Assembly: GCA_045637825.1 (NCBI GenBank)
Contig: JAZUAD010000024.1
Span: forward strand, 62,202 to 126,201
Direction: 5' to 3'
Length of the DNA: 64,000 nt
Source of the DNA: Candidatus Onthoplasma sp.
GTDB lineage: Bacteria; Bacillota; Clostridia; Christensenellales; UBA1242
In this document: positions 4,830 to 31,416 of the stretch, one piece after another
Layout: each line of letters begins with the position of its first letter
Numbering within the stretch: position 1 is the stretch's first letter
Notes under the pieces: generated by a model
What the model saw: only the letters and a program-made list of their open reading frames with translations
The model's database searches: none
Told to the model about the DNA's origin: nothing
Program-made: the position numbers and the translations under genes

Positions 4830-5729
4830 ATGAAAAAAAGAGCAATTTCTAGCATTTTTATTATGCTTGCAATAGTTTTGGCGATTGCGTCTAAATTTTT
4901 AGTTGGTGAAGTTTTTGATATTTTTGTGGCTGTTATAGGTATTGTGGGCGCACTAGAAATGTGTAATATGCTAGAAAAGAAAGGTATTAAAGTTAGCAGA
5001 TTTTTAAGTAGTATGTTTATAGTAGTGCTGTATTTTGCAGTAGTTATAGGTCTTAACACTATGGCAGATTTGAAATTAGCATTTTTGTATATTTTAGATG
5101 CCTTTTTGTTGTATGTGTTTGTAATATTTATATACGAACTAATTGTTAATAAGCAAGATAGAATAGGTAGCGCTTTAACTATAACTTTAAATTCATTAAG
5201 AGTTATGGTTTATCCAGGATTGTTACTTTCAATCTTCTTTGTAATTAACCATATTGAGGCGTTTACAACAGTTAATATTAAGGTGCCATATTTATCATTG
5301 ATATTGATAGTATTTATTTGGGGTATAGCGCTACTTAGTGATACGTTTGCATACCTTGTGGGTAGTACTTTACGTGGACCAAAACTTTGTCCTAAAATTA
5401 GCCCTAACAAAAGTTGGAGCGGGGCAATAGGTGGAGTTATTGGTGGAGTATTGATGGGCGTTATCACTTATCTATTGATTAAAAATATTGATTGCTTAAA
5501 TGTTATTTTAACGTCAACTCATATTAATCTTGCATGGCTTATGGTATTGGGTGGACTTGGTTCAGCAGTTAGTCAAGTTGGAGACATATTTGAAAGTTGG
5601 TTAAAACGTCGTGCTGGCGTTAAAGATTCAGGAAACTTTATGCCTGGCCATGGCGGAATGCTAGACAGAGTTGATGCATTAATGTTCTGTTTGGTGTTTG
5701 TTGGCGGAATATTAATGTTCTTAATTTAA
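4830..5729 (+). CDS. cdsA: phosphatidate cytidylyltransferase
   Basis: 299 aa polytopic membrane protein. C-terminal signature SWLKRRAGVKDSGNFMPGHGGMLDRVD. Confidence 0.9.
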   Translation: MKKRAISSIFIMLAIVLAIASKFLVGEVFDIFVAVIGIVGALEMCNMLEKKGIKVSRFLSSMFIVVLYFAVVIGLNTMADLKLAFLYILDAFLLYVFVIFIYELIVNKQDRIGSALTITLNSLRVMVYPGLLLSIFFVINHIEAFTTVNIKVPYLSLILIVFIWGIALLSDTFAYLVGSTLRGPKLCPKISPNKSWSGAIGGVIGGVLMGVITYLLIKNIDCLNVILTSTHINLAWLMVLGGLGSAVSQVGDIFESWLKRRAGVKDSGNFMPGHGGMLDRVDALMFCLVFVGGILMFLI

Positions 5730-5740
5730 AGAATAAAGCA

Positions 5741-5819
5741 GTGGGGACAAAGCGTGTGATAAATCACACGAAATGCGGAAAGCATTTAAAGGGCGTTAAA
5801 GCCCTTGCTTTGTCCCTAT
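5741..5819. other. compact four-way-junction (cloverleaf-like) element: 10-13 bp closing stem enclosing three 6-bp hairpins with 0-1 nt linkers
   Basis: GGGACAAAGC (5744-5753) pairs with GCTTTGTCCC (5807-5816). Inner hairpins are GTGTGA-TAAA-TCACAC (5754-5769), AAATGC-GGAAA-GCATTT (5771-5787) and AAGGGC-GTTAAA-GCCCTT (5789-5806). It has no tRNA loops and no T-run. Function unknown. Confidence 0.4.
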
Positions 5820-5887: not shown

Positions 5888-7015
5888 GTGAATTATTTAT
5901 TATCTATTGGCTCAAGTTTATCATTTGTGTGGTATATATTAGTTGCAATCTTAGCTCTGCTACTAATGGTAATGATACACGAGTTTGGGCATTATGTTGC
6001 AGGAAAAATGTTGGGCTTTAAAATTAACGAATTTTCGGTAGGTTTTGGTCCTAAAATTTTGCAAAAAAAGAAGAAAAATGGCGAAGTGTTTAGCTTGCGT
6101 ACTATTCCACTAGGTGGTTATTGTGCTTTTGATGGCGAGGACGAAAATTCTAATAGTCCTACAGCGTTTAATAACCAAAAGGCGTGGAAGCGATTAATTG
6201 TGTTATTTATGGGTGCGTTTTTTAACTTCCTATCAGCAATTATATTTTCATATATCTTATTGGTTAGTTGTGGTTACGAACACGTGCAAGTAAAATCAAT
6301 TAATAATACTTCGTTCCAACACCAAGTGGAAAATCACTTAGAAGTAGGCGACCGAATTTATGGTATTAATGGTACAGATTTTGACTTTGTAAGTGATGAT
6401 TATTTTAACAGTTTACTTGGCGATTATGTACGAAATAATCTTGACTTTGAAGAAGATATGTGGACTAGCAATGGGGTAGATTATAGCACTATACCACTAA
6501 ATATTGAGCGTAATGGCAAAAAAATGGTGGTTGAAGGAGTATTACAAAAGCAAATAGTTGATGATGAGGAGGTTTGGAGTTTTGTATCGACCGACACTAA
6601 AGATTTTCAACTAAAAACTTATCGTCACGGATTTGTAGAGGCGATAGGCGAAAGTGTTACATTTACATTCCGTTGGGCACATAAAATTTTGATTATATTA
6701 GGTGATTTGTTTACAGGACAATTATCAGTAACTTCACTAGGTGGTCCTGTAACTACAATTAAAGTTATGGCAGAAACCACACAACAAAGTTATAGTTACT
6801 TGCTAGTATTATTACCTGTAATTGCAGTTAACTTGGCAGTATTTAACTTGCTTCCAATACCTAGTTTGGACGGAGCACGTATGGTATTTGTATTTATTGA
6901 AATGATTAGGCGTAAACCAATAAATCGTGAGGTAGAGGCCTATATTCACGGCTTTGGATTATTGCTATTACTTGGCTTTGTACTAGTGGTAGATGTACTG
7001 CAGTTTGTGCTATAG
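5888..7015 (+). CDS. rseP: RIP (site-2) zinc metalloprotease RseP/RasP
   Basis: 375 aa. HEFGHY zinc motif, PDZ-like middle region, NLLPIPSLDG motif. GTG start with GGGAGAG RBS. Confidence 0.9.
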   Translation: MNYLLSIGSSLSFVWYILVAILALLLMVMIHEFGHYVAGKMLGFKINEFSVGFGPKILQKKKKNGEVFSLRTIPLGGYCAFDGEDENSNSPTAFNNQKAWKRLIVLFMGAFFNFLSAIIFSYILLVSCGYEHVQVKSINNTSFQHQVENHLEVGDRIYGINGTDFDFVSDDYFNSLLGDYVRNNLDFEEDMWTSNGVDYSTIPLNIERNGKKMVVEGVLQKQIVDDEEVWSFVSTDTKDFQLKTYRHGFVEAIGESVTFTFRWAHKILIILGDLFTGQLSVTSLGGPVTTIKVMAETTQQSYSYLLVLLPVIAVNLAVFNLLPIPSLDGARMVFVFIEMIRRKPINREVEAYIHGFGLLLLLGFVLVVDVLQFVL

Positions 7016-27732: not shown

Positions 27733-28794
27733 ATGAAGCATCAATTTACAATTGGTAGAAGGGCTAGAGTTGAGGAAAATATACCTAATAATTATCAAAT
27801 TATAGACCTTAATTCATATCACACTACAAAATCGCTAGTATTGGTTTTGGGTGGTAATGGTACTACTGATGATAGATCTGCTAATGGCAATGCTAAAATA
27901 GTGTCAAGTATGCTTGGCGTGTTTAATGATGATGTTGAAATATTATCGGTAAACTATAATCAAGGTTTGGGCGAACCAAATATAACTGAAAATTGTAAAG
28001 TTTTGGTTGATAAATTATTTTTACCATATGTTTCTATTAATGGAGAAAGATTAGATATAGATACCGCCTGTAAAAATATGCGAAATATAACAGTGTTTGC
28101 GCATTGCAGAGGTGTTGATGGACCTATGAGAAGGATTGTTCCGATATTACAAAATAGGTTAATGGAATTAAATTATAATACTGCAGAGCGTGAGCAAATA
28201 ATATCTCAAATAGTGATGGTTGCCTATGGTGCTAATTTAAACGACACTATTAAGGAAATTAAAGGCGTATATTGCCTATCATTTAGTGACGAAATGTATC
28301 CTAGTGGAGCAGCTCTTCTATCAAAGCAATTTTTAAACAAACTAGATATTATCAATATGGTTAAAAGTGATAGGGAGTTATTAAGTGAAATAGATATATC
28401 TAAAAAGCGAGATTTAATAGCTGCACAATTAAGTACATTCTTACAAACACATAGGCGTGTATATAATATAAATGAAGGTAACAATATTCGCTTACTTGCT
28501 TATGGCTTGCTTCAAACCGATAATCATATATGGGAAGCTGACCATACAATAATAGGACTTACAAGAGAAGATGATTGGTCTTCGCATAAAAACGCATCAT
28601 CAACCGGTGATTGTGTTTCAAGATGTTTGGCGTGTGCTTTATGTAATAGCGTTGCTAATAGTATAATCAATCAAAAATCAGACTTATTTGTAGATTTTGA
28701 TATGGTTAAATTGCAAAACCAAATTGATACTATATGTAAGCAACATAATTACGAACAAACTAAACTAGATAACGTAGATTTGGAATTATTATAG
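27733..28794 (+). CDS. hypothetical protein, possibly alpha/beta-hydrolase-like with a Cys at the nucleophile elbow
   Basis: 353 aa. VFAHCRG fits the small-x-Nu-x-small pattern with Cys. C-terminal Cys cluster CVSRCLACALC. No signal peptide. Weak inference only. Confidence 0.35.
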   Translation: MKHQFTIGRRARVEENIPNNYQIIDLNSYHTTKSLVLVLGGNGTTDDRSANGNAKIVSSMLGVFNDDVEILSVNYNQGLGEPNITENCKVLVDKLFLPYVSINGERLDIDTACKNMRNITVFAHCRGVDGPMRRIVPILQNRLMELNYNTAEREQIISQIVMVAYGANLNDTIKEIKGVYCLSFSDEMYPSGAALLSKQFLNKLDIINMVKSDRELLSEIDISKKRDLIAAQLSTFLQTHRRVYNINEGNNIRLLAYGLLQTDNHIWEADHTIIGLTREDDWSSHKNASSTGDCVSRCLACALCNSVANSIINQKSDLFVDFDMVKLQNQIDTICKQHNYEQTKLDNVDLELL

Positions 28795-28900
28795 GGTAGG
28801 AAACTACTCTATTTTTTATGTTAGTACATAATTATTTTATTAAAAACACAACTTATAAATTTTAAATAAATGGCACTGGTTATTTATTTTTGGCAAAACC

Positions 28901-28950
28901 TATGATAAACTATGATTAATTATGGTAATATTAGGATAATTATAGTTATT
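28901..28950. repeat. five tandem 10-bp phased units (TATGATAAAC TATGATTAAT TATGGTAATA TTAGGATAAT TATAGTTATT)
   Basis: Read directly. The period of exactly 10 bp ends at the ATTTTGCGAATAGATGC motif. Confidence 0.5.
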
Positions 28951-28988
28951 TTGCGAATAGATGCGAGCAGAATGTAATATATATTCGC
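28948..28988 (+). promoter_or_regulatory. copy of the recurrent motif ATTTTGCGAATAGATGC overlapping a candidate promoter (TTGCGA-18-TAATAT)
   Basis: 17/17 identical to 2299-2315. GCGAATA (28953-28959) is also inverted as TATTCGC (28982-28988). Confidence 0.4.
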
Positions 28989-29071
28989 CAAGTAGGTCAG
29001 CCAAAGAAATATTTTATTAGTGTAATAGTAAAAGAGTTGATAGATTTTATAAATTTATTTTGTAAAAATAG

Positions 29072-29100
29072 TTGAAATTTATTAAGAACTATGTTATTAT
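29072..29100 (+). promoter_or_regulatory. tRNA-Glu promoter (TTGAAA-17-TATTAT)
   Basis: TTGAAA 29072-29077, TATTAT 29095-29100, 21 nt upstream of the tRNA 5' end. Confidence 0.5.
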
Positions 29101-29121
29101 ATAAGGGTATTTAAAATATAT

Positions 29122-29196
29122 GCCCGTATAGTCTAGAGGTTAGGACATGGCCCTCTCACGGCTAGGACAGGGGTTCGATTCCCCTTACGGGTACCA
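29122..29196 (+). tRNA. tRNA-Glu (anticodon CUC), CCA encoded
   Basis: Hand-folded cloverleaf: acceptor GCCCGTA/TACGGGT (G1.U72 wobble), D arm GTCT/GGAC, anticodon arm TGGCC-CTCTCAC-GGCTA, T arm AGGGG-TTCGATT-CCCCT. Collinear with E. coli tRNA-Glu except for C34. Confidence 0.85.
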
Positions 29197-29200
29197 AATT

Positions 29201-29239
29201 AAAAACTCTGGTAAAGGTCACTAACTTTTGAAACTAGTG
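29201..29239 (+). repeat. left copy of the 39/40-nt inverted repeat (tRNA trailer motif)
   Basis: AAAAACTCTGGTAAAGGTCACTAACTTTTGAAACTAGTG. 33 of 40 aligned positions are identical to the reverse complement of 30824-30863. Confidence 0.8.
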
Positions 29240-29251
29240 AAATAAAAGATT

Positions 29252-29281
29252 AAAACCAAAACAATGTTGTTTTGGTTTTTT
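29252..29281 (+). terminator. rho-independent terminator after tRNA-Glu and the left repeat
   Basis: AACCAAAACA-ATGT-TGTTTTGGTT followed by TTTT. Confidence 0.8.
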
Positions 29282-29348
29282 ATTAAACTTTAATAAAAAT
29301 AATACACTTTTAATAATAGTGTGATATAATAGTTTTAGGAGAAAAATT

Positions 29349-30446
29349 ATGGATGCAGGATATATATATGATAATAATGCTAATCTAATTGAAGAAGGAA
29401 TTGACATATCTAAATTAAAATATATCACAAGAGAAGTGATTAATGATGTTAATAAAGTAAACTATTGTCATGGCTTTGAAGGCATTGATTTGTCTAAATT
29501 TGATTTATCTAATTTATCGTTAGACGATATTAGCAATATAACATTTGACCAAAAAACAAAGTGGCCAGACAGCAGTAAACTTCCAAAGGGATTTTCTCCT
29601 TCAATTTTATTACAAGATAGAAAAGGATGTTTCCCTGGAATTCGTGATTTACATAAATTAGGGATTAACGGACAAGGTATTAATGTTGTTTACATTGACC
29701 AACAAAACAAATTTGTTTTTAATCATGAAGAATTTAAACACTTGAATTATCAATATTTTGATTTTAATGATTACGATTTAGATGAATTTCATCCATACGG
29801 AGTTCTGTCTAATCTGTGTGGTAAAAATACAGGAGTTGCACCAAATATTAACTTATATTATTATTCTGCGTATAGATGGAAAGAAAATGATAAGTCAATG
29901 CTAGAATGTTTGCTCGATGTATTGCAAAAATTAAAAGATGGCAAGCATATTGATGTTGTGGGTATTTCTGGTCCTTTATATTTTATGAACAATAAACAAC
30001 AAACTCCGGAGCAAAAAAAGATAGATGAAATAGTTGAGCAAATTCAAGCATTCGGTTGTGTTGTGATAGATGGTTATCGTTTTTTAGATGACTTTACTTG
30101 TTGTGGATTGGAAATTAGTGAGCAAATGTCTTTTGAAAATTTAGATTATGTTTCATGGGCAAATGAAGATGATAAATTAAAGCCTGCATTTATTTGTAAA
30201 GGTCAAGTAATTGCAGAGTGGCAAACTAAAAACGAATATGTTTATCAAGGCACTAATTGCGATAGTTGGCCTATTGCTCAATGTGTTGGATTATTTGCAC
30301 TGTGTAGACAAATAGATAATCATATAACTTATGATAGTTTTGTTGCAAATATTAACAAAAGTTTAATAAACAATAAAGTGATAGATTTTCATAGATGTAT
30401 TTTACACATTAAAAATAATACAAACGAAAATTATATTGATAAATAA
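29349..30446 (+). CDS. divergent subtilisin-like (S8 family-like) serine peptidase, cytoplasmic (no signal peptide)
   Basis: 365 aa. Candidate triad D117 (VVYID), H148 (FHPYG), S306 (CDSWPIAQCVGLFAL versus GTSMAAPHVAGVAAL). D-H and H-S spacings are 31 and 158, close to subtilisin BPN' (32 and 157). GVAPNINL and NHEEF subtilase-type motifs. Confidence 0.55.
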   Translation: MDAGYIYDNNANLIEEGIDISKLKYITREVINDVNKVNYCHGFEGIDLSKFDLSNLSLDDISNITFDQKTKWPDSSKLPKGFSPSILLQDRKGCFPGIRDLHKLGINGQGINVVYIDQQNKFVFNHEEFKHLNYQYFDFNDYDLDEFHPYGVLSNLCGKNTGVAPNINLYYYSAYRWKENDKSMLECLLDVLQKLKDGKHIDVVGISGPLYFMNNKQQTPEQKKIDEIVEQIQAFGCVVIDGYRFLDDFTCCGLEISEQMSFENLDYVSWANEDDKLKPAFICKGQVIAEWQTKNEYVYQGTNCDSWPIAQCVGLFALCRQIDNHITYDSFVANINKSLINNKVIDFHRCILHIKNNTNENYIDK

Positions 30447-30469
30447 ACATTTATAAAAATGGCACTTAG

Positions 30470-30525
30470 ACGTGTGCTTGTCATATACAAGTGTCGTCGC
30501 TTCGCTCCGACAGACAAGCACACGT
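30470..30525. repeat. GC-rich 13-bp perfect inverted repeat (long hairpin) just after the S8-like gene
   Basis: ACGTGTGCTTGTC (30470-30482) and GACAAGCACACGT (30513-30525), with inner TGTCG/CGACA pairing. No T-run. Confidence 0.6.
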
Positions 30526-30548
30526 TAACAACTAAATAAATTAAAATC

Positions 30549-30593
30549 AAAAAGCGAAAATGTTGGCAGAGCATAACACATTTTCGCTTTTTG
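30549..30593 (+). terminator. rho-independent terminator
   Basis: AAAGCGAAAATGT-N14-ACATTTTCGCTTT followed by TT. Confidence 0.75.
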
Positions 30594-30606
30594 TATGTTT
30601 ACATGT

Positions 30607-30781
30607 GGCTATTTATTCCATGGTGTACTTGACAATAGGCGCTGAAATGATGTTTCTCTTTCTGGTTAAGACAGAGAAACGATAATTGTGCTTATGGCTT
30701 TAAAGTTTTCGTTTCTCTGCCTTTTGATATTGTGTTTTCATTTCTTCTCTTGTCAAGTACCTTTCACGGCATAAAGTAGCC
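30607..30781. repeat. 175-bp long imperfect palindrome (MITE-like or structured-RNA element)
   Basis: Outer arms GGCTA.TTTAT...GTACTTGACAA (30607-30635) versus 30750-30781. A concentric 11-bp perfect inner pair CAGAGAAACGA (30672-30682) / TCGTTTCTCTG (30709-30719). An alternative 8-bp pairing uses GTTTCTCT at 30652-30659. Confidence 0.6.
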
Positions 30782-30782
30782 A

Positions 30783-30814
30783 ATAAAAAAGAGAACTAGA
30801 ATTTTCTAATTCTC
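30783..30814 (-). terminator. minus-strand rho-independent terminator following the right repeat copy
   Basis: On the minus strand: GAGAATTAGAAAATTCTAGTTCTC followed by TTTTTTATT. Confidence 0.6.
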
Positions 30815-30823
30815 TAATTATTA

Positions 30824-30863
30824 CACTAGTTTCAAAATTCAGTGACTAAAACCTAGAGTTTTT
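30824..30863 (-). repeat. right copy of the 39/40-nt inverted repeat
   Basis: The minus strand reads AAAAACTCTAGGTTTTAGTCACTGAATTTTGAAACTAGTG. Confidence 0.8.
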
Positions 30864-30866
30864 TTC

Positions 30867-30894
30867 TTGACAAAATTCGACATTTGATTATAAT
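30867..30894 (+). promoter_or_regulatory. promoter (TTGACA-16-TATAAT) for the 30922 ORF
   Basis: TTGACA 30867-30872, TATAAT 30889-30894. RBS AAGGAGAG before the ATG at 30922. Confidence 0.6.
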
Positions 30895-30921
30895 GACAAT
30901 TATCAAGCAAGGAGAGATTTT

Positions 30922-31275
30922 ATGAGCAAAACATTTGGCTATTATTTAACAATTAGTATTAAGGACTTAGTGGCTTCAATTATGATTAATGAAGACAAAA
31001 CACAGATAGGTAAAGATGAATTGTATGATTTATTTTTAAGAACTACCTATAAAATGAAACAAAAAGGAGTAAATGGTAGAGTGGCATATAGTCGTGACGA
31101 CTTGGCGGAATTTAAGCGAGAATATATAGATGAGTTTGAAGTTGGTATTAAATCTATTAAACTACGTGATGGTTATTCTTTAGAGTGGTTGCAAGACCAC
31201 ATTGTATCCTATATGTCTGTTGACACATTACAACTATTAGGTGTAATTCCTTGTGAAAATGAACTTTCATTATAA
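30922..31275 (+). CDS. hypothetical protein (117 aa)
   Basis: Good promoter and RBS. No recognisable motif. Confidence 0.45.
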   Translation: MSKTFGYYLTISIKDLVASIMINEDKTQIGKDELYDLFLRTTYKMKQKGVNGRVAYSRDDLAEFKREYIDEFEVGIKSIKLRDGYSLEWLQDHIVSYMSVDTLQLLGVIPCENELSL

Positions 31276-31416
31276 TTTAGCAATAAGTTGTTAGGGTATA
31301 TTAAATATAATTTATTAATTCTTATCGTTTGATAAGAATTTTTTATAAATTTATATAAATGTTAACAAAAATTTAGTGATATGTGCTATAATAATTTTTA
31401 AATTAAGGAGAAAACT

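Follow-up and report, generated by a model that had tools for sequence, protein, structure and literature searches.

A probable non-autonomous mobile cassette in the terminator loop of a clostridial tRNA-Glu(CUC) gene

The tRNA-Glu(CUC) locus and its inverted repeats

The present analysis concerns two inverted repeats, and the segment that they enclose, in a 64,000-nucleotide stretch of Candidatus Onthoplasma sp. (contig JAZUAD010000024.1, positions 62,202 to 126,201), the whole of which is called the window. The genes around the repeats lie in the order xseA, proS, ORF353, tRNA-Glu, ORF365, ORF117, comEC and holA, and the three open reading frames (ORFs) designated by number belong to no family. 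As developed below, the repeats are most probably the two junctions of a non-autonomous mobile cassette of ~1.64 kb (~29214-30849) that lies in the loop of the terminator hairpin of tRNA-Glu(CUC).

The tRNA-Glu(CUC) gene, whose terminator is the one hit, occupies 29122-29196 on the plus strand (ARAGORN; Rfam tRNA, 63.8 bits). It is followed by the A-tract and stem arm AAAAACTCTGG (29201-29211, +), which form the 5′ half of the host terminator and are complementary to 30852-30865, and then by the left terminal inverted repeat (TIR) of the cassette, here called the short end (29214-29239, +), which reads AAGG TCACTAAC TTTTGAAACTAGTG. An intrinsic terminator borne by the element, with a 13-bp perfect hairpin and a U-run (29252-29283, +), separates the short end from ORF365 (29349-30446, +), the cargo gene of this copy. 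The remainder of the interval is a structured block that ends at the right TIR, or full end (30824-30849, −), with the sequence TTAG TCACTGAA TTTTGAAACTAGTG. Outside it are found the stem arm and T-tract CCTAGAGTTTTTTT (30852-30865, +), which make up the 3′ half of the host terminator, and the ORF117 promoter of the host flank (30867-30894, +; TTGACA-16-TATAAT, 12/12), which has homologues in the relatives L084, L085 and L086. A preliminary description of this DNA had placed a promoter, assigned to ORF 30922, in front of the right repeat, and it is this TTGACA-16-TATAAT that was located there; the content of the interval also agrees with that description, namely, a single ORF, a GC-rich inverted-repeat hairpin, a bidirectional terminator and a long palindrome.

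The repeats had first been aligned by hand, with 33 identities over 40 positions, and the computed local alignment returns the same 33/40 over that span. The full alignment, of 29197-29290 (+) with the reverse complement of 30776-30870, has 38 identities in 46 positions with one gap, and matches AAAAACTCT-GGTAAAGGTCACTAACTTTTGAAACTAGTGAAATAA on the left with AAAAACTCTAGGTTTTAGTCACTGAATTTTGAAACTAGTGTAATAA on the right; a repeat finder reports an ungapped 29-nt arm that is 90% complementary. The repeat was also correctly described as having no further copy in the window: the 14-mer TTTTGAAACTAGTG occurs exactly only at 29226-29239 (+) and 30824-30837 (−), and no other close copies of it were found in the 64 kb. 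Each copy does have its own terminator, consisting of a hairpin at 29252-29279 (+) or 30815-30790 (−) and a U-run.

Two other details of the preliminary description did not survive. The small hairpin CACUA/UAGUG, which had been proposed for both copies, is not a conserved structure, as 6 of 33 related units have lost its fifth pair while the other four pairs are invariant, and as CACU is absent from most of the short ends of other species; pairing of the spacers within a unit was also tried and is unsupported. The label "S8-like" for ORF365 is not borne out either, since the protein has no Pfam or NCBIfam family and only non-significant phmmer matches in the PDB (E = 0.31 and 0.7).

The repeat is instead composite. 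Its outer part consists of the halves of the host terminator, and only its inner 26 nt are the TIR, made of AAGG or TTAG, 8 variable nt and the invariant TTTTGAAACTAGTG. By eye, dif-like or hix-like symmetry of these ends is weak, and none is claimed.

The empty site and the family of related elements

Comparison of the proS-comEC junction in relatives, as had been proposed, identified a locus in which the cassette is missing and the terminator is intact (L084, reached through an ORF117 homologue with 74% identity). The gene order in this relative is proS ... dprA, tRNA-Glu(CUC), ORF117, comEC, holA, and its tRNA (5949-6023) is identical to that of the window. Downstream of the tRNA, the relative has AAACTCAGG-CTTTTAG-TTTGAGTTTTTTT and next the ORF117 promoter with its TTGACA, while the repeat, the block and ORF365 are all absent from the junction. 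Because the window flanks AAAAACTCTGG and CCTAGAGTTTTTTT align to the two arms of this intact terminator, AAACTCAGG and TTTGAGTTTTTTT, respectively, the cassette can be located in the loop of the host terminator, with an A-tract and CTCTGG left on one side and CCTAGAG and a T-tract on the other.

A short stretch upstream of the tRNA-Glu promoter is also kept between the two genomes (window 28950-29010 and L084 about 5700-5760; TTTTGCGAATAGATGC ... CCAAGTARG), and the genes upstream of it differ, being ORF353 in the window and a helicase plus DprA in L084. In two further relatives (L086:2208-2282 and L085:1-180), tRNA-Glu(CUC) and its own promoter and terminator are turned round with respect to ORF117-comEC, the window and L084 sharing the other orientation, and no cassette lies at this tRNA.

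Related elements were sought by an exact-pattern scan with GTCACTNNNTTTTGAAACTAGTG in one genome per species. The pattern was found in 52 loci from ~48 species-level genomes, at 1-2 per genome, all of them metagenome-assembled genomes (MAGs) of uncultured Clostridia labelled Christensenella sp., Candidatus Fimimonas, Onthoplasma, Limihabitans or "Clostridia bacterium". About 47 of the 52 loci continue into the same series, comprising TAATAATTA, the terminator hairpin hp1, an imperfect hairpin of ~185 nt, the terminator T2 and the hairpin named module 4; this conserved block ends with ...TCTAAGTGCCA and spans, in the window, 30849 down to ~30455 (~390 nt). An alignment of 33 such units has a mean column identity of 86%.

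A mismatch-tolerant search of all loci disclosed a second, diverged copy of the motif in ~28 of them, always inverted and 0.87-3.0 kb downstream of the unit; these loci are nearly all of those having sufficient downstream sequence. This short end is built of an A-run, a spacer of 6-8 nt, AAGG, 8 variable nt, (T)TTTGAAACTAGTG, WAAWAA and a locus-specific terminator, a layout that the left copy of the window fits exactly. Every short end in the other loci carries its own terminator, and the short ends share only the linear 14-mer. The boundary of the short end was set at (C)AAGG by the point at which the homology of L048 and L049 breaks, the two loci differing beyond it.

The motif is confined to these positions: in the 660 kb searched, it occurs only as the two ends of the element and never at other terminators, and a single match in phages was a chance one in a coding region. 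The unit has no conserved synteny, its flanking ORFs belonging to unrelated housekeeping families, and tblastn found none of the flanking proteins of the window beside the unit in any other locus. No −35/−10 signal lies upstream of the motif, where only an A-run ~13-16 nt before it is conserved; this run is the A-tract of a split terminator.

The evidence for splitting extends to 24 loci, in which the two flanks of the same element are complementary. Beside the A-run there is a variable spacer that is the same at both ends of a locus and different among loci (e.g., GTACAC, CGCCAA, GAGAAG, CCACTAG, TTGTAGA and CTTCTAAG; CTCT(A)GGT in the window). The longest substring common to both flanks has a mean of 7.2 nt in the true pairs as opposed to 4.1 ± 0.2 nt in 2000 trials of shuffled pairing, the highest of which gives 4.9. 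When the flanks are joined head to head, they give hairpins of the type A-tract/stem/U-tract, mostly with −8 to −22 kcal/mol. The flanking genes read into the element at 21 of 26 full ends and at 16 of 24 short ends, as expected for terminators that stand behind genes or between convergent genes, and the stop codon often abuts the A-tract where a flanking gene enters the element.

Further support for mobility was provided by units that are 97-99.7% identical and reside at unrelated sites. The loci L018 and L057 (units 99.7% identical) have identical cargo and unrelated flanks, L026 and L029 (98.7%) have the same cargo in different flanks, and L010 and L029 (99.2%) differ in both cargo and flanks. 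Among units that are at least 97% identical, the homology sets in precisely at TTA|GTCACT next to the flank and ends directly after ...CTGCCAA on the cargo side. Two copies in the same MAG are not each other's closest relatives. The element at the window locus is bracketed by 26-bp ends (29214-29239, +, and 30849-30824, −) with an identical 14-mer, and it is lacking at the site in L084. Of the readings first offered for the repeat pair, that of the TIRs of a non-autonomous cassette is therefore the one backed by the empty site, the ~28 other loci and the near-identical elements. It needs a correction of the boundaries, because the outer ~11 nt of each repeat arm belong to the split stem of the host tRNA-Glu terminator and only the remainder is cassette.

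The cargo begins directly after the ...GUGCCA of module 4. The rest of the block and one or two unrelated cargo genes, in either orientation, lie between the ends. The types of cargo are varied, and include pairs of ABC-2 transporter genes, SDR, ASCH, an EEP nuclease, MTaX1 with a C5 methylase, an MBL-fold protein, an HNH nuclease, an HTH protein, GNAT with APH, DDAH/ODC and proteins of no family. No transposase or recombinase was present among 20 cargo ORFs scanned singly, nor among the 25 commonest families of 150 neighbouring ORFs, in which most of the cargo ORFs are included. In six loci (L010, L029, L046, L021, L008 and L028), an extended −10 of the TGTTATAAT type recurs ~65-85 nt past the end of the unit, before cargo of the same orientation, and the sequence surrounding these sites does not align.

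As for ORF365 itself, only 9 homologues were found, and an exact-sequence look-up of ORF365, ORF117 and P0001 (a 100%-identical match for ORF365) returned no record. An NCBI contig of 137,916 nt encodes 100%-identical matches of both ORF365 and ORF117. The idea that the cassette travels with this gene was rejected, as the gene lies elsewhere and without the repeat in five loci (L001-L005) of three homologues; a relationship of ORF365 to the Rep proteins discussed below was likewise rejected.

Some members of the family have a more complex architecture. The locus L026 equals L029 plus a mini-element of ~115 bp (TIR, terminator, TIR), which abuts with a 2-bp TT, and a metagenome scan yielded 13 genuine further mini-elements, some of them abutting another end through a TT spacer. 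These were considered as independent miniature inverted-repeat transposable elements (MITEs), an idea that was abandoned, since most of the 13 resemble the short-end module of larger cassettes. In L057, short ends lie both 1266 and 2284 nt downstream of the motif. This locus, L026 and L048/L049 represent nested or serial forms, in which there are either serial short ends with a further cargo gene or one more TIR, facing inwards, across the terminator of the short end, and such arrangements suggest a modular build-up of the cassettes.

Several points weigh against interpreting the locus as a mobile cassette. The empty site L084 belongs to another species (~70-74% protein identity) and not to another strain of the same one. 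The count of 1-2 copies per genome is unusual for MITE-like elements; because the related loci are all metagenome-assembled, mis-binning could affect statements on copy number. An unambiguous target-site duplication was not found: the flanks are the complementary arms of a hairpin and not direct repeats, and the YAAG and TAAR beside the ends show no covariation, which leaves 2 bp (TT/AA) as the largest possible duplication. Neither a cognate transposase nor an autonomous element with the same ends was found in the cassette, among the top families of the window, in the related loci (~400-660 kb) or in collections of plasmids and phages, and the ends had no match below E = 0.3 to annotated plasmid insertion sequence (IS) elements. 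Finally, a part in mobility for the strongly conserved ~390-nt block is conjectural.

The structured block and module 4

Read from the full end inwards, the block opens with hp1 (30783-30815, −), the element-borne terminator of this end, which is formed by a hairpin and a U-run and has a conserved U.G pair on the minus strand. Its compensatory changes include the exchange of GAGAAUUAG/CUAGUUCUC for GAGUUGAGAU/AUCUCAAUUC. The adjoining long imperfect hairpin of ~185 nt has large internal loops (30605-30787, −; minimum free energy −57.1 kcal/mol, z = −7.6) and is nearly invariant over the 33 units, with G.U pairs on the minus strand. It is followed by the bidirectional intrinsic terminator T2 (30548-30593), a 16-bp perfect inverted repeat with an A-run and a T-run that is conserved, with compensatory changes, in the 33 units.

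The long hairpin resembles 6S RNA and the single-strand origins of rolling-circle replicons in shape only (~185 nt, irregular, with large internal loops), and it matched nothing in Rfam, 6S (RF00013) included, when 28700-31400 was searched at the gathering threshold and at E ≤ 10. Scans of the window, the region and the Rep-linked loci at these two settings returned tRNAs only, which in the window are two in number. A promoter-like TTGACA-16-CACAAT is found in the 5′ arm of the long hairpin (30756-30729, −), with the −35 invariant and the −10 reading CA(C/T)AAT in 33 of 33 units. An RNA starting there would span ~175 nt to T2, which is offered as a lead and not as a result.

Module 4, the last part of the block (30460-30531, −), is an inverted-repeat hairpin with 13-bp arms, the conserved loop GAGCGAAGCGA and the bulge CUUGUAUAU. 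It is paired in 95% of the cells of the alignment, three pairs of its inner stem show compensatory changes, and none of 500 shuffles reaches the observed covariation score. A covariance model (R1) detects a single copy in the window, with 96 bits, and none in the ORF365 and ORF117 relatives L001, L002, L004 and L084-L086. RNAalifold and pair counts over the 33 units detect the compensatory changes of hp1, of T2 and of the module 4 inner stem, and many G.U pairs of the block exist only on the strand of the unit. To judge from these alignments, the covariation favours selection acting on a folded single strand, be it RNA or single-stranded DNA.

The connection of module 4 to other mobile DNA came from four other elements (L058/L087, L060, L082 and L083), in which it is located directly 3′ of genes for HUH Rep proteins (Pfam REP_ORF2-G2P). 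These copies have compensatory stem variants of their own and the conserved CUYGUAU bulge. In MT835493.1 (L058/L087, about 28-45 kb), Rep and module 4 are followed by defence-type cargo similar to Dnd/Ssp, encoding a PAPS reductase, DUF4007, a cysteine desulfurase, a helicase-PLD protein and AAA_23, whereas GmrSD follows in L060 and a tyrosine integrase in L082. The Rep-linked loci were recognised by pattern or BLAST (L058, L059/L082 and L060) and through a search with the Rep protein (L083); the notion of module 4 as a widespread phage element was discarded, as the matches of a relaxed arm pattern in viral contigs were mostly chance ones in coding sequence. In all four elements, module 4 is preceded by a long hairpin with the conserved apical loop CCAAGCGGKTYAGCGGCG. 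No Rep gene was found near any of the ~50 cassettes.

Two exceptional copies of module 4 deserve mention. In L050 (6602-7022), module 4 (6611-6682) has the ~30 nt between its 13-bp arms in the opposite orientation to that of every other unit, and the covariance model scores 86 bits on the strand opposite to the unit versus 51 bits. In L053 (4106-4190), a deletion has removed hp1, the long hairpin, T2 and the 5′ arm of module 4, and the 3′ arm adjoins the TIR motif without a gap (...CTAGTGTAA|GTATATGACAAGCACACG). The break falls within the conserved CTTGTATAT bulge, and this locus retains its inverted short end at a distance of 1.55 kb.

Mechanism, alternatives and known systems

The mechanism that best accommodates these observations is one in which the cassette would have inserted into the apex of an A/T-flanked intrinsic terminator and split the host stem, leaving one arm on each side. 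The inward-facing terminator inside each end would replace the disrupted one, so that transcription of tRNA-Glu would now end at 29252-29283 and that from the opposite side at hp1. What moves would be the structured block of ~390 nt (hp1, long hairpin, T2 and module 4) with swappable cargo, here ORF365. The 14-mer ends may be bound by a trans-acting enzyme, as in mobile insertion cassettes and MITEs, and the target may be recognised as an A/T-flanked hairpin or cruciform. Movement is presumed to be conservative, by cut-and-paste or by excision and integration, in which case the copy number would stay at 1-2 per genome. A DDE transposase acting in trans, a recombinase and an HUH Rep are all candidates for the engine.

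The closest named kind is the mobile insertion cassette (MIC), which consists of two inverted repeats without a transposase and carries passenger genes unrelated to transposition, being presumably mobilised in trans; examples are MIC231 of Bacillus cereus and the mic elements that carry qnrD (PMC3913671, citing Chen et al. 1999). Like a MIC, the cassette is bracketed by TIRs, has a passenger gene and lacks an internal transposase. In contrast to MICs, it has no known cognate IS, no clear target duplication and 1-2 copies per genome, and it possesses a structured block of ~390 nt at one end, a terminator at each end and a terminator loop as its target.

The choice of target recalls two groups of IS elements, namely, IS1397/ISKpn1 and others that target repetitive extragenic palindromes (REPs; PMC1525189), and IS1630 of the IS30 family, for which targeting of inverted repeats is indicated by a title quoted in PMC3317919 (reference 47). 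Like them, the cassette enters hairpin-forming inverted repeats of variable sequence downstream of genes. These IS elements are autonomous and have transposases, which the cassette does not; REPs are repeated families, whereas the targets of the cassette are unique gene terminators; and IS1630 duplicates the whole inverted repeat, whereas the cassette splits the hairpin with one arm on each side. Group IIC introns are also mobile and land at the stem-loops of intrinsic terminators. Unlike these introns, the cassette has neither a ribozyme nor a reverse transcriptase, inserts in the loop and not after the stem, and ends in inverted repeats.

The cassette differs from the known kinds in five respects: it has no known cognate transposase, no clear duplication and only 1-2 copies, and it has a large structured block and, through module 4, a link to HUH-Rep islands. 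One may tentatively propose that it represents an undescribed class, a cargo platform with 1-2 copies that targets terminator loops, in which the ~390-nt block (long hairpin with an internal promoter, and a module 4 shared with HUH-Rep and integrase islands) would be part of the machinery for mobility or cargo capture and not passive, MITE-like baggage. The block might then be an origin nicked by Rep, a recombination site for swapping cargo or an element-encoded RNA that acts with a host enzyme.

A related explanation keeps the cassette and changes its engine, which would be a Xer-type or other tyrosine recombinase that acts on the inverted ends, or an HUH Rep that nicks module 4, the cassette being a hitchhiker of Rep/integrase islands. 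It draws on the lack of a clear target duplication, on the position of module 4, with its covarying stems and conserved CUYGUAU bulge, just 3′ of REP_ORF2-G2P in four elements, on the exchange of cargo exactly at the 3′ edge of module 4, and on the deletion in L053 that ends inside the module 4 bulge. There is also a precedent in the pdif or Xer-dependent modules of Acinetobacter plasmids, which are recombinase-less cargo units between short inverted sites with one half conserved and the other variable. The cassette shares this organization, as a discrete unit without a recombinase whose inverted sites have conserved and variable halves, but its 26-bp ends have no dif-like dyad symmetry or likeness to known Xer sites, and it is chromosomal and placed inside terminator hairpins. 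Moreover, neither Rep nor integrase lies near any of the ~50 cassettes, the sequences of the insertion sites vary, unlike the fixed sites of site-specific systems, and the abutted ends with a 2-bp spacing and the ~115-bp mini-elements of TIR, terminator and TIR are closer to the behaviour of classical IS elements and MITEs. This explanation is accordingly regarded as rather unlikely.

It is less likely again, indeed improbable, that the pair operates at the level of RNA. According to this hypothesis, the 14-mer (UUUUGAAACUAGUG) would act in 3′ trailers, e.g., as a site for a protein or small RNA before terminators, and the two copies would be paralogous RNA modules. Both copies do stand just upstream of strong terminators and on the strand copied by incoming transcription, the left one being necessarily a trailer of tRNA-Glu; most flanking genes read into the ends; and the adjoining block has RNA-like covariation and strand-specific G.U pairs. 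The earlier idea of small-RNA modules thus stands in so far as the left copy is a co-transcribed tRNA trailer, which now ends at a terminator borne by the element, whereas the right copy is the first 26 nt of the ~390-nt block and the hairpin supposed to be common to both is not conserved. The short ends share the linear 14-mer alone, the motif is confined to element ends throughout the 660 kb, the homology between loci breaks exactly at the ends, as in a DNA element, and the empty site is left unexplained, although a role in RNA could coexist with that of a transposon end.

An invertible segment, in which the 14-mers would be the sites of an invertase encoded elsewhere and a flip of 1.6 kb would alter the sequence behind the tRNA or before ORF117, is very improbable. 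In its favour, the two repeats resemble hixL/hixR of the Hin system in having an inner core of 14 identical bp and outer 12 bp that differ, L050 has a flipped interior of module 4, and tRNA-Glu is inverted relative to ORF117 in L086 and L085. The L084 empty site, the split-terminator flanks of 24 loci and the identical elements at unrelated sites fit insertion instead. No recombinase is present in the cassette, its neighbours or the 25 window families listed of 74, and a recombinant junction or flipped state was seen in none of ~50 loci, the full-type outer half always occurring with hp1. No switch is apparent because either orientation puts a terminator behind the tRNA and leaves the ORF117 promoter outside the segment.

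The wider gene content of the window (SpoIIIA, SpoVA, RNase Y, MutS, IF-2 and others) indicates the chromosome of a spore-forming member of the Clostridia, and a Pfam sweep of its 56 ORFs gave housekeeping and sporulation genes and no transposase or recombinase among the 25 families listed of 74.

If the interpretation as a mobile cassette is correct, the abundant uncultured Clostridia of the gut of humans, ruminants and chickens would harbour a family of small cargo-carrying elements. Insertion at the apex of a terminator by an element that brings its own replacement terminators would add accessory genes between host genes and leave the expression of the neighbours undisturbed, and the cargo so added would include methylase-linked genes, an HNH nuclease, APH/GNAT enzymes and ABC exporters. 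The family offers defined 26-bp ends, a natural empty site, near-identical copies, a precise cargo junction and a module shared with defence-carrying HUH-Rep islands, which together make it possible to ask what recognises terminator hairpins as landing pads and by which route cargo is exchanged.

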